Assembly: GCF_050920415.1 (NCBI RefSeq)
Contig: NZ_CP169309.1
Source of the DNA: Escherichia coli
GTDB lineage: Bacteria; Pseudomonadota; Gammaproteobacteria; Enterobacterales; Enterobacteriaceae
Strand: one strand, 5' to 3'
DNA length: 64,000 nucleotides
Part shown: one piece after another, positions 8,554-64,000 of the stretch
Numbering within the stretch: the stretch's first letter is position 1
Layout of the letters: each line of letters opens with the position of its first letter
The notes under the pieces: model-generated
Seen by the model: only the letters and a program-made list of their open reading frames with translations
The model's database searches: none
What the model was told of the DNA's origin: nothing
Translations under genes and position numbers: made by a program

Positions 8554-8629
8554 GCCCGGATAGCTCAGTCGGTAGAGCAGGGGATTGAAAATCCCCGTGT
8601 CCTTGGTTCGATTCCGAGTCCGGGCACCA
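8554..8629 (+). tRNA. pheU: tRNA-Phe (anticodon GAA)
   Basis: Exact match to E. coli tRNA-Phe: GCCCGGATAGCTCAGTCGGTAGAGCAGGGGATTGAAAATCCCCGTGTCCTTGGTTCGATTCCGAGTCCGGGCACCA. Confidence 0.97.
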
Positions 8630-16241: not shown

Positions 16242-16477
16242 CTGTCGTAAAAACAATTGGTTATGAATAAATTAACTTTCAGTTTATCACACTAGCAAAT
16301 CGAGATTAATAAGTCATTTAAACCATTTTTATGGTTATTTATTAGTGATATCAACTTGAGGTAAGCGTTAGTTTCGATAAGATAAACTGAGTTATTAATA
16401 GTCGAGGCAGATAATACAGTGTACCGATCTGTCTCTTTATCTACGCTAAATTGAAAGCTGGATTTAGAGGAACCAAA

Positions 16478-17995
16478 ATGTCTGAACGAGAAACACGGGG
16501 AGCCAATGAGGCTATTGATTTTAACGATGAACTGAGAAATCGCCGCGAAAAACTGGCAGCACTGCGTCAGCAAGGTGTGGCGTTTCCTAATGATTTTCGC
16601 CGCGACCATACCTCTGACCAGTTGCACGAAGAGTTTGATGCGAAGGATAACCAGGAACTGGAATCCTTAAACATTGAAGTCTCGGTTGCTGGCCGAATGA
16701 TGACCCGTCGTATCATGGGGAAAGCCTCCTTTGTAACGTTGCAGGATGTCGGTGGCCGTATTCAACTGTACGTTGCACGAGATAGCCTGCCAGAAGGTGT
16801 TTATAACGATCAGTTTAAAAAATGGGACCTCGGCGACATTATCGGTGCCCGCGGTACGCTGTTTAAGACGCAAACGGGTGAACTTTCCATTCACTGTACT
16901 GAGCTGCGCCTGCTGACTAAAGCACTACGTCCTTTACCAGATAAATTCCATGGTCTGCAGGATCAGGAAGTCCGTTATCGTCAACGTTATCTGGACCTCA
17001 TCGCTAACGATAAATCCCGTCAAACGTTTGTTGTCCGTTCAAAAATTCTGGCCGCTATCCGCCAGTTCATGGTCGCGCGCGGCTTTATGGAAGTAGAAAC
17101 CCCGATGATGCAGGTAATTCCAGGTGGGGCATCTGCTCGCCCGTTTATTACCCATCATAATGCTCTGGATTTGGATATGTACCTGCGTATTGCGCCGGAG
17201 CTATATCTGAAACGTCTGGTTGTAGGTGGTTTTGAACGGGTATTCGAAATCAACCGTAACTTCCGTAATGAAGGTATTTCTGTTCGTCATAATCCTGAGT
17301 TCACGATGATGGAACTCTACATGGCGTATGCGGATTACCACGATTTGATTGAACTGACGGAATCACTGTTCCGCACTCTGGCACAAGAGGTACTGGGTAC
17401 CACTAAAGTCACTTATGGCGAGCATGTGTTTGATTTCGGCAAACCGTTTGAAAAACTCACCATGCGCGAAGCAATCAAAAAATATCGTCCAGAAACCGAT
17501 ATGGCGGACCTGGATAATTTTGATGCTGCTAAAGCATTAGCTGAATCTATCGGAATTACGGTAGAGAAAAGCTGGGGGCTGGGACGCATTGTCACGGAGA
17601 TCTTTGATGAAGTGGCAGAAGCACATCTGATTCAGCCAACCTTTATCACGGAATATCCGGCAGAAGTGTCACCGCTGGCGCGCCGTAATGATGTTAACCC
17701 GGAAATCACCGACCGTTTTGAATTCTTCATCGGTGGTCGTGAAATCGGTAATGGTTTTAGCGAATTAAACGACGCAGAAGATCAGGCGGAACGTTTCCAG
17801 GAACAGGTTAACGCTAAAGCTGCAGGTGACGACGAAGCCATGTTCTATGACGAAGATTACGTGACTGCGCTGGAATATGGTCTGCCGCCAACCGCGGGTC
17901 TGGGTATTGGTATCGACCGAATGATTATGCTGTTTACTAACAGTCATACTATTCGCGACGTTATTCTCTTCCCGGCGATGCGTCCACAGAAATAA
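16478..17995 (+). CDS. lysU: Lysyl-tRNA synthetase, heat-inducible isoform LysU (505 aa)
   Basis: Class II aaRS with N-terminal OB-fold anticodon-binding domain; start at ATG 16478 inside ORF 16451-17995; assigned as lysU (not lysS) by gene neighbourhood. Confidence 0.93.
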
Positions 17996-18005
17996 ATTTC
18001 ATTTT

Positions 18006-18040
18006 AACGAACGAAGCAGTCAGACGACTGCTTCGTTCGT
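18006..18040 (+). terminator. Stem-loop downstream of lysU
   Basis: Inverted repeat aacgaacgaagcagtc / gactgcttcgttcgt; weak T-run. Confidence 0.5.
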
Positions 18041-18113
18041 CGTTCCACAAATCCAGTTTCGAGGAGAGACGCTTCGTTTCAAGATAACCAGCGGGTCCAC
18101 TCAACTACAGCTC

Positions 18114-18287
18114 CTAAAAGAGAGAAAAAAGTAATGCCACAGGCAGGCTCATTGGCCAGGTTATTCCGACCAGAAATGCACTAAGTAAACGAATATGTGT
18201 TTTCTCATGTGAGATAAACCAGATAATGACAAAGGATATGTTCACACCAATCACATAAAAAATTAATATTTTAGAGAATAGTGCCAT
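18114..18287 (-). CDS. ghoT: Type V toxin GhoT, small membrane-lytic peptide (57 aa)
   Basis: Reverse-strand ATG at 18285-18287 opens a 57-codon frame MALFSKILIFYVIGVNISFVIIWFISHEKTHIRLLSAFLVGITWPMSLPVALLFSLF ending at TAG (18114-18116); below the 60-aa cut-off of the ORF track; directly downstream of ghoS. Confidence 0.85.
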   Translation of the reverse strand: MALFSKILIFYVIGVNISFVIIWFISHEKTHIRLLSAFLVGITWPMSLPVALLFSLF

Positions 18288-18314
18288 TTTTTATGTTCTT
18301 CTTATCCTTCCTGA

Positions 18315-18611
18315 CTACTTGTAAAACTGACGGAAATAGTCATCAACGGTCATAATGTTGAGGTCAAAATCAATATCCGGTAAGTCTAAGCATTTGAGCC
18401 TGATTAAATCTTCGATTTCACTTGCGGCTAACGATGTCGTTATTGCGAAGGAATTTTCATTCAATTGTCGTGGTATCCCATATTCATCAGCCACGATAGA
18501 GGAGAAATTCATATCATACATCAATGATCTTAACCTTAAGAACACTGAGGAATAAGATGATGGATAATCAAAAGAAACAACATAAGTATTGAACTTGTTT
18601 TTACCTTCCAT
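18315..18611 (-). CDS. ghoS: Type V antitoxin GhoS, sequence-specific endoribonuclease (98 aa)
   Basis: ORF MEGKNKFNTYVVSFDYPSSYSSVFLRLRSLMYDMNFSSIVADEYGIP... matches GhoS (formerly YjdK); upstream of ghoT on the same strand. Confidence 0.85.
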   Translation of the reverse strand: MEGKNKFNTYVVSFDYPSSYSSVFLRLRSLMYDMNFSSIVADEYGIPRQLNENSFAITTSLAASEIEDLIRLKCLDLPDIDFDLNIMTVDDYFRQFYK

Positions 18612-18840
18612 AATATGACTCCTATCAATATTAAAACGATCTGGGGACGCACAACTTATTAACCCCGATCGATGATTCTCATATAGGAGATATTCTTTTT
18701 TTTTTGCTCAGTAAAGGGGATGACTTGGGACAAGAAAACGCTCTCTCTGACCATTCTTTGTGCATCCCCCTACCCTTCAGATTCTCTCCTGCATCACACC
18801 GCGGAGAGCATGAAAAATATCGTGACTCTGTACTCTCCCA

Positions 18841-19113
18841 TCAACTGCGAATATCATCATACTCCCGCGTTTTATCAAATTCGTGTTTCGCAAATGGACA
18901 TAATGGGATAATTTTTCGTTTTTCCCGACGCATTTTTTCCACGACTTTCGCAACCAGCTGTTTACCAATCCCCTGCCCTTTCAGGCTTTCATCGACATCG
19001 GTATGTTCGATAATCGCTAAATTCTTGCCGGTCGGCACAAAGACAATTTCAGCAATTTGCTTGCCCTGTTCGTCATTAATGTAAAATTTATTGTGGCCTT
19101 CGCGTATTTCCAT
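18841..19113 (-). CDS. yjdJ: Small GNAT-like acetyltransferase-fold protein YjdJ (90 aa)
   Basis: ORF with Q/R-x-x-G-x-G/A acetyl-CoA-binding-like motif ([18 protein letters not shown]); conserved neighbourhood. Confidence 0.75.
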
Positions 19114-36278: not shown

Positions 36279-37370
36279 ATGCGTTTTCTGCGCCGACCAA
36301 TATCGCTGCGCCAACGGCTGATATTGACCATTGGGGCCATTTTGTTGGTGTTTGAGTTGATCAGCGTCTTCTGGCTATGGCATGAAAGTACCGAGCAGAT
36401 TCAGCTGTTTGAGCAGGCGCTACGCGACAATCGTAACAACGATCGCCACATCATGCGTGAGATCCGCGAGGCGGTCGCCAGCCTGATTGTCCCTGGCGTC
36501 TTTATGGTCAGCCTGACGCTATTTATCTGCTATCAGGCGGTACGCCGCATCACCCGCCCGCTGGCGGAGCTGCAAAAAGAGCTGGAAGCGCGCACCGCCG
36601 ACAACTTAACGCCCATTGCCATTCACAGCGCCACCCTCGAAATCGAAGCGGTGGTTTCAGCGTTAAACGATCTGGTCAGTCGCCTGACCAACACGCTGGA
36701 TAACGAAAGGTTGTTTACCGCTGACGTCGCGCACGAACTGCGAACGCCACTGGCGGGGGTGCGTTTGCATCTGGAACTGCTGGCGAAAACGCATCACATT
36801 GATGTAGCACCGTTAGTGGCACGACTTGATCAGATGATGGAGAGTGTCTCCCAGCTACTGCAACTGGCGCGTGCCGGACAGTCATTTTCTTCCGGTAATT
36901 ATCAACATGTAAAACTGCTGGAAGATGTCATTCTCCCCTCGTATGACGAACTCAGTACCATGCTCGACCAGCGCCAGCAAACCCTGCTATTGCCAGAGAG
37001 CGCCGCCGACATCATCGTTCAGGGTGATGCAACCCTGCTGCGGATGTTATTGCGAAACCTGGTAGAAAATGCCCATCGTTACAGCCCGCAAGGCAGCAAC
37101 ATTATGATTAAGCTGCAAGACGATGGCGGAGCGGTCATGGCCGTTGAAGATGAAGGACCGGGTATTGATGAGAGTAAATGCGGGGAGTTGAGTAAAGCGT
37201 TTGTACGAATGGACAGCCGTTATGGCGGGATTGGTCTGGGGTTAAGTATTGTCAGCCGCATTACACAGTTGCATCACGGGCAGTTTTTCCTGCAAAACCG
37301 GCAAGAGACTTCCGGCACGCGGGCCTGGGTACGGCTGAAGAAAGATCAGTACGTGGCAAACCAGATATAA
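36279..37370 (+). CDS. basS: Sensor histidine kinase BasS/PmrB (363 aa)
   Basis: HisKA (DVAHELRTPLAG) and HATPase domains; ATG at 36279; ORF track begins three codons earlier (36270). Confidence 0.9.
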   Translation: MRFLRRPISLRQRLILTIGAILLVFELISVFWLWHESTEQIQLFEQALRDNRNNDRHIMREIREAVASLIVPGVFMVSLTLFICYQAVRRITRPLAELQKELEARTADNLTPIAIHSATLEIEAVVSALNDLVSRLTNTLDNERLFTADVAHELRTPLAGVRLHLELLAKTHHIDVAPLVARLDQMMESVSQLLQLARAGQSFSSGNYQHVKLLEDVILPSYDELSTMLDQRQQTLLLPESAADIIVQGDATLLRMLLRNLVENAHRYSPQGSNIMIKLQDDGGAVMAVEDEGPGIDESKCGELSKAFVRMDSRYGGIGLGLSIVSRITQLHHGQFFLQNRQETSGTRAWVRLKKDQYVANQI

Positions 37371-37439
37371 AGAAAGCTGCTGACCACCAGCACGCTGAAC
37401 ACGGTAGTTAAACTTTCATAAACACGGTTTTTCATTGCA

Positions 37440-37465
37440 CTCTCCTCCGTTAACCTGGAGGAGAG
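37440..37465. terminator. Stem-loop between convergent basS and proP
   Basis: Inverted repeat ctcctcc / ggaggag between convergent 3' ends. Confidence 0.45.
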
Positions 37466-37548
37466 TATGCGTGTCAGAGATTAAGTGAACCTTAAGAGTC
37501 AATTGTTGGCCTGATGAGACAGCATCCCATCAGGCAATTCGTTTCAGC

Positions 37549-43187: not shown

Positions 43188-43335
43188 CGGTAGGCCGGAT
43201 AAGGCGCTCGCGCCGCATCCGGCTACGGTGCCGACTGCCTGATGCGACGCTCGCGCGTCTTATCAGGCCTACAAATTCTCGCACCATCCGGCAACGGTGC
43301 CTAATGCGACGCTTACCGAGTCTTATCAGCCCCCG
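43188..43335. repeat. REP / BIME cluster (about three REP units in alternating orientation)
   Basis: Units gtaggccggataaggcgctcgcgccgcatccggc, gcctgatgcgacgctcgcgcgtcttatcaggcctac and a third partial unit match the E. coli REP consensus. Confidence 0.75.
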
Positions 43336-63105: not shown

Positions 63106-64000
63106 ATGAAAAAAGTCGTCACGGTTTGCCCCTATTGCGCATCAGGTTGCAAAATCAACCTGGTCGTCGATAACGGCAAAATCGTCCGGGCGGAGGCAGC
63201 GCAGGGGAAAACCAACCAGGGTACCCTGTGTCTGAAGGGTTATTATGGCTGGGACTTCATTAACGATACCCAGATCCTGACCCCGCGCCTGAAAACCCCC
63301 ATGATCCGTCGCCAGCGTGGCGGCAAACTCGAACCTGTTTCCTGGGATGAGGCACTGAATTACGTTGCCGAGCGCCTGAGCGCCATCAAAGAGAAGTACG
63401 GTCCGGATGCCATCCAGACGACCGGCTCCTCGCGTGGTACGGGTAACGAAACCAACTATGTAATGCAAAAATTTGCGCGCGCCGTTATTGGTACCAATAA
63501 CGTTGACTGCTGCGCTCGTGTCTGACACGGCCCATCGGTTGCAGGTCTGCACCAATCGGTCGGTAATGGCGCAATGAGCAATGCTATTAACGAAATTGAT
63601 AATACCGATTTAGTGTTCGTTTTCGGGTACAACCCGGCGGATTCCCACCCTATCGTGGCGAATCACGTAATTAACGCTAAACGTAACGGGGCGAAAATTA
63701 TCGTCTGCGATCCGCGCAAAATTGAAACCGCGCGCATTGCTGACATGCACATTGCACTGAAAAACGGCTCGAATATCGCGCTGTTGAATGCGATGGGCCA
63801 TGTCATTATTGAAGAAAATCTGTACGACAAAGCGTTCGTCGCTTCCCGTACAGAAGGCTTTGAAGAGTATCGTAAAATCGTTGAAGGCTACACGCCGGAG
63901 TCGGTTGAAGATATCACCGGCGTTAGCGCCAGTGAGATTCGTCAGGCAGCGCGGATGTATGCCCAGGCGGAAAGCGCAGCCATTCTGTGGGGCATGGGTG
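63106..64000 (+). CDS. fdhF: Formate dehydrogenase H selenoprotein FdhF, 5' portion (truncated by window end); codon 140 is an in-frame TGA read as selenocysteine
   Basis: MKKVVTVCPYCASGCKINLVVDNGKIVRAEAAQGKTNQGTLCLKGYYGWDF... molybdopterin oxidoreductase N-terminus; frame continues unbroken after TGA at 63523-63525 to the window end (HGPSVAGLHQSVGNGAMSNAINEIDNTDLVFVFGYNPADSHPIV...). Confidence 0.93.
63526..63570 (+). other. SECIS stem-loop directing selenocysteine insertion at the fdhF UGA
   Basis: Immediately 3' of the TGA: cacggcccatcggttgcaggtctgcaccaatcggtcggtaatggc, matching the recalled fdhF SECIS hairpin. Confidence 0.8.

Follow-up and report, generated by a model that had tools for sequence, protein, structure and literature searches.

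Among described systems, the closest to the locus considered here is that of Escherichia coli K-12, in which GhoT and GhoS constitute the founding type V toxin-antitoxin system of Wang et al. 2012, as cited in two later reports (PMC4344625; PMC4905990). GhoS is a stable endoribonuclease that serves as antitoxin by cleaving ghoT mRNA and exerts no transcriptional regulation on the pair (PMC4344625; PMC4905990); about 20 purine and pyrimidine transcripts are also degraded by it (PMC4010927; PMC3905216). GhoT is described as inserting into the membrane, with loss of ATP and the appearance of 'ghost' or tolerant cells (PMC4344625; PMC4905990; PMC3905216). These and one further report give GCU as the preferred cleavage motif of MqsR, which cuts the ghoS part of the transcript and spares ghoT (PMC4344625; PMC4905990; PMC3905216; PMC5408214), and only 14 E. 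coli mRNAs have no GCU site, ghoT being among them (PMC4905990; PMC3905216; PMC5408214). What chromosomal toxin-antitoxin systems do physiologically is still a matter of debate (reviewed in PMC10643148).

Several other systems resemble this pair in part. OrtT (YdcX), an orphan E. coli paralogue of GhoT, belongs to the same family (PF10753), is likewise 57 aa long, and is 63% identical to GhoT by tblastn (PMC4344625). Like GhoT, it has two transmembrane segments, damages the membrane and lowers ATP; unlike GhoT, it lacks an antitoxin, GhoS does not neutralise it, and its mRNA contains two GCU sites (PMC4344625). For GhoS, structural homology to Cas2 has been described, with five conserved catalytic residues (PMC4010927). 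In contrast to Cas2, ghoST has no CRISPR context, and sequence searches with GhoS return only the GhoS family. The type I peptides, for example Hok and TisB, are likewise small hydrophobic toxins of the inner membrane; they cause membrane energetics to collapse, and their synthesis is prevented at the level of the mRNA. In those systems an antisense RNA serves as antitoxin, whereas ghoST relies on a protein endoribonuclease that is encoded upstream on the same strand.

The locus at 18,114-18,611 of the window (the whole stretch of DNA analysed, 64,000 nt) is almost certainly the ghoS-ghoT (ghoST) type V toxin-antitoxin pair that E. coli carries on its chromosome, and it sits where it normally does, between yjdJ and lysU; no observation speaks against this identity. 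The pair is already known, having been characterised in 2012-2014, and is routinely annotated by RefSeq; for the same stretch, all of the matches listed carry the label 'type V toxin-antitoxin system toxin GhoT / endoribonuclease antitoxin GhoS'.

The ghoS and ghoT genes and their products

The first gene of the pair, ghoS (yjdK), occupies 18315..18611 on the reverse strand, begins with ATG, and encodes the endoribonuclease antitoxin of 98 aa. It is followed on the same strand by a spacer of 27 nt (18288..18314), which forms the A-rich leader of ghoT (TCAGGAAGGATAAGAAGAACATAAAAA), and then by ghoT itself (18114..18287), which runs from an ATG at 18285-18287 to a TAG at 18114-18116 and encodes a hydrophobic membrane toxin of 57 aa. 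The preliminary description had proposed exactly this 57-codon reverse-strand frame, and the peptide that it quoted is identical to the translated ORF from ATG to TAG (MALFSKILIFYVIGVNISFVIIWFISHEKTHIRLLSAFLVGITWPMSLPVALLFSLF). Since an in-frame TAA lies two codons 5' of the ATG, a longer ghoT frame is ruled out.

At the default cut-off of 60 aa the ghoT frame is absent from the ORF list, and both frames appear when the minimum is lowered to 30 aa. The earlier claim that the toxin gene is invisible to the ORF track thus holds at 60 aa, but it reflects only the threshold; RefSeq records of thousands of genomes already include the gene. The more general point drawn from it, that short functional genes drop below such a cut-off, is borne out by ghoT, which goes unlisted at 57 aa and is real by both Pfam and its identity to the K-12 protein. 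The same threshold admits a 66-aa ORF antisense to ghoS (18355..18555, forward strand), which is without annotation in all records examined and is probably spurious. The methodological value of the locus is therefore that a 60-aa cut-off hides a conserved toxin gene of 57 aa yet lists a spurious antisense ORF of 66 aa; scans of this kind would need short-ORF-aware calling, or family HMMs applied to frames of at least 30 aa. A further candidate, a 31-aa ORF at 18659..18754 on the reverse strand, was rejected as a gene, given that it covers an A tract that is A8 or A10 depending on the strain and its frame is consequently not conserved.

The identity of both proteins follows from family and strain comparisons. 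GhoT matches Pfam PF10753 (Toxin_GhoT_OrtT) with E=9.8e-26 and a score of 90.2, residues 4-57 aligning to positions 1-55 of the 55-position model, and it is identical at 57/57 residues to b4559 of E. coli K-12 MG1655 (NC_000913.3), in agreement with the GhoT match put forward from the sequence. The assignment of the upstream gene as GhoS stood equally well: the protein matches Pfam PF11080 (GhoS) with E=7e-41, is identical at 98/98 residues to PDB 2LLZ (deposited as 'yjdK'), and is 100% identical to b4128 of the same K-12 genome (NC_000913.3). A PDB search with GhoT found no solved structure, and an NCBIfam scan of GhoS and GhoT returned no families; the latter is uninformative, for PGAP evidently names both proteins by other rules. 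The gene in the window is the copy that is paired with GhoS, its product having the sequence of GhoT rather than that of OrtT, and a tblastn search of the window with both proteins detected no second copy.

Kyte-Doolittle hydropathy, the only measure applied here, gives GhoT a GRAVY of 1.5 and two hydrophobic stretches, approximately residues 1-26 and 32-57, with the polar segment SHEKTHIR between them. This accords with the strongly hydrophobic two-helix peptide of the preliminary description, and the profile agrees with the two-transmembrane prediction published for the GhoT/OrtT family (PMC4344625). Residues with published functions are also in place. Codon 38 of ghoT is TTT and encodes Phe38, which is needed for toxicity, F38R abolishing it (PMC4344625). 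In GhoS, R28, L25 and M31 are wild type (V23 F24 L25 R26 L27 R28 S29 L30 M31), so that the protein is not the toxic ArT variant; Arg28 is the GhoS residue most important for RNase activity, and roles of R28, L25 and M31 have been reported (PMC4010927).

It might nevertheless be argued that ghoS is the sole real gene, the 57-codon frame being open by chance or the remains of a dead gene. The frame is shorter than the usual ORF length cut-off, it has no canonical, well-spaced Shine-Dalgarno sequence, and at a GC content of 35% an AT-rich frame free of stops is somewhat less unexpected. Against this stand the Pfam match, which extends over the whole peptide, and the identity to a K-12 GhoT that is experimentally toxic (PMC4344625), together with the substitution pattern and distant homologues described in the following section.

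Chromosomal setting, conservation and loss

The genes around the pair are arranged dcuR-dcuS-yjdI-yjdJ-ghoS-ghoT-lysU-dtpC, the same order as in K-12, where the cad genes come next. Here yjdJ (18841..19113, reverse strand) flanks ghoS, and lysU (16451..17995, forward strand) flanks ghoT and is convergent with it; PGAP labels this neighbour 'lysS', and its position is that of lysU. The placement between lysU and yjdJ that had been read from the sequence matches the K-12 annotation. The operon-like layout, with the antitoxin gene directly upstream on the same strand, also occurs in K-12, O157:H7 and ATCC 25922. GC content falls to about 35% over ghoST (18150-18750) against about 47-55% in the flanking genes, and this low-GC pocket is compatible with, and hints at, an ancient horizontal acquisition of the pair.

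Compared with K-12, the window has the same two proteins, gene order, flanks, 27-nt spacer length, GCU counts, R28 and F38. The differences comprise 5 coding nucleotides, all synonymous and 2 of them in ghoT; one base of the spacer, T against C just after the ghoS stop; an A tract upstream of ghoS that is A10 in the window and A8 in K-12; and a compensatory C-G/U-A change in a downstream hairpin. Overall, the operon region is 97.0% identical between the two. Over the 1 kb from 17900 to 18900, the sole 100% match is strain MFDS1022581 (South Korea), and 17 of 5358 matching records reach at least 99% identity, which indicates that the window belongs to an E. coli lineage that is relatively uncommon and is not K-12.

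Variation was examined among four strains, namely that of the window, K-12, O157:H7 (Z1811) and ATCC 25922. Across ghoS and ghoT together, 10 variable codons are synonymous and 1 is non-synonymous; ghoS accounts for 7 of the synonymous changes and for the single replacement (N85S in ATCC 25922), and ghoT for 3 synonymous changes and 0 non-synonymous ones, GhoT being invariant. Variable columns make up 1.7-2.7% of the coding sequence versus 6.8-8.3% in three intergenic stretches. Judged from these substitutions, ghoST is under purifying selection. The natural N85S variant of ATCC 25922 falls at codon 85 of ghoS; growth-inhibiting GhoS mutants repeatedly carry substitutions at four residues, of which N85 is one (PMC4010927).

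This pattern also bears on the notion that ghoT is a chance frame or remnant. All 3 of its variable codons are synonymous in four phylogenetically distinct strains, while the flanking non-coding sequence varies three to four times more, and Salmonella and Pantoea have homologues that are 56-67% identical. With the family match and the toxicity of the identical K-12 protein, these observations effectively refute it, and its probability is vanishingly small. The preferred reading thus remains that of an intact ghoS-ghoT pair.

Outside E. coli, GhoT/OrtT-family genes were seen in a Salmonella record at 67% identity (locus L006, 2001-2174) and in about 78 large plasmids of Pantoea at 56% (locus L007, 2001-2174). 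No annotated ghoS neighbour stands beside them on the Salmonella and Pantoea loci viewed. The Pantoea locus has a 56-aa hypothetical gene about 100 nt downstream of the GhoT/OrtT-family gene (L007, 2279-2449). 'Plasmid' matches to GhoT at 100% lie in records that range from 0.09 to 4.9 Mb, and they were not accepted as evidence of mobility. Three PLSDB records, H46-H48, of 4.8-4.9 Mb, carry ghoT and, judged by their size, appear to be chromosomes filed as plasmids, which inflates the plasmid counts for ghoT.

Within E. coli, ghoST is present in 5318 of 5426 complete genomes, and about 2% are without it. One case of loss can be followed in strain ET220 (NZ_CP100981.1; locus L003, 3001-4217), in which nothing of ghoS is left beyond its first 50 bases; an IS1B-family transposase comes next, and tRNA-Phe after it. 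A deletion at this IS1, reaching from the interior of ghoS to the tRNA-Phe gene, has thus removed ghoT, lysU, dtpC and cadABC. Since about 2% of genomes are without the pair, one of them through an IS1-associated deletion, ghoST is dispensable.

Expression signals, MqsR sites and function

The two genes differ in their translation signals. Upstream of ghoS, a Shine-Dalgarno sequence AGGAG (18619..18623, reverse strand) lies 7 nt before the ATG and forms an anti-SD duplex of -6.8 kcal/mol. The preliminary description had suggested a check for a ribosome-binding site upstream of the ghoT ATG, and this check does not find one in good position: the leader contains no well-spaced Shine-Dalgarno sequence, its best anti-SD duplex (-6.5 kcal/mol) ending 17 nt before the ATG. 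O157:H7 carries T for one G of this best motif. Because the Shine-Dalgarno sequence is not well spaced, native translation of ghoT is perhaps weak, and the leader points to an initiation that may be weak or non-canonical and is possibly coupled to translation of ghoS.

Signals for transcription were sought by consensus scan. Between 17900 and 18950 no terminator was called, and promoter-like sites were at chance level (4 found versus 3.0 expected from shuffles); the spacer between ghoS and ghoT has neither a promoter-like site on the coding strand nor a terminator-like site. From the 27-nt gap without a terminator, co-transcription of ghoS and ghoT is likely. In the intergenic region between yjdJ and ghoS, the A tract at 18696-18705 is A10 in the window and in ATCC 25922, and A8 in K-12 and O157:H7; this difference in length could alter promoter spacing.

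A more specific proposal can be built on these features, namely that ghoT is translated non-canonically, by ribosomes finishing ghoS or after processing of the transcript, and that non-coding variants could tune toxin output in this rare lineage, the variants meant being the A10 versus A8 tract upstream of ghoS, the base change in the spacer, and the co-varying 3' hairpin. We consider this very unlikely. If true, non-canonical translation of ghoT would refine the known system, not define a new one.

The MqsR sites are distributed as described for K-12. Three GCU triplets lie in ghoS within 18389..18491 on the reverse strand, at 18489-18491, 18397-18399 and 18389-18391 (ghoS nt 121, 213 and 221), versus 0 in ghoT, and their positions are the same in K-12. 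The locus would accordingly fit the published scheme, in which GhoS may be expected to act as a sequence-specific endoribonuclease of 98 aa with a ferredoxin-like, Cas2-like fold and to block GhoT synthesis by cutting the ghoT part of the mRNA, the two proteins not binding one another. In stressed cells, MqsR, a type II toxin that acts as an RNase specific for GCU, would preferentially destroy the ghoS part, leaving ghoT mRNA enriched. GhoT, once made, would enter the inner membrane, damage it and lower ATP, resulting in slow growth or 'ghost' cells. The RNase activity, the membrane damage and the MqsR cascade in this scheme are taken from the literature; gene and protein identity, synteny, the signature of purifying selection, the GCU asymmetry and the functionally important residues derive from the present comparison.

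A different view of the function would accept both genes as intact and deny that they are mainly a toxin-antitoxin system: GhoS would be a general post-transcriptional regulator of the roughly 20 purine and pyrimidine transcripts, and GhoT would be rarely made and of minor importance. The reported degradation of 20 other mRNAs by GhoS (PMC4010927; PMC3905216) is in keeping with such a role, as are the weak ribosome-binding site of ghoT and the loss of the pair in about 2% of genomes with no obvious penalty. Furthermore, GhoT/OrtT-family toxins exist without a ghoS neighbour, OrtT among them (PMC4344625), and the field is sceptical of the phenotypes ascribed to chromosomal toxin-antitoxin systems (PMC10643148). 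However, about 98% of complete E. coli genomes have ghoS and ghoT next to each other, GhoT shows no protein variation among the four strains compared, and the GCU asymmetry is conserved between the window and K-12; moreover, both ghoT-specific cleavage and GhoT toxicity are described in published work (PMC4344625; PMC4905990; PMC3905216). A primarily regulatory role is thus judged unlikely, and the toxin-antitoxin reading is preferred.

RNA structures downstream of ghoT and elsewhere in the window

The 118-nt gap between the convergent ghoT and lysU genes contains a hairpin at 18006..18041 (no strand assigned), with a perfect stem of 16 bp and a loop of 4 nt. Its folding energy is -27.6 kcal/mol, and the 141-nt stretch tested gives a fold z of -3.4. 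Relative to K-12 and O157, the stem has one compensatory C-G to U-A change, and in ATCC 25922 it is shortened to 13 bp. The hairpin has no T-run on either strand, which is why the terminator scan did not call it. It is a plausible candidate for a 3'-end structure shared by ghoT and lysU.

An Rfam scan of the whole window placed no RNA family at the ghoST locus, and on this basis a known antisense or sRNA antitoxin is ruled out there. Elsewhere in the window, Rfam and ARAGORN identified a tRNA-Phe (GAA) gene at 8554-8629 (forward strand), the sRNA STnc630 at 37339-37504 (reverse strand), the nucleoid-associated RNA naRNA4 at 43193-43269 (forward strand), and a SECIS_2 selenocysteine insertion element at 63518-63572 (forward strand). 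The tRNA-Phe gene lies at the distance expected for K-12 pheU, and all four elements fit an ordinary E. coli chromosome.
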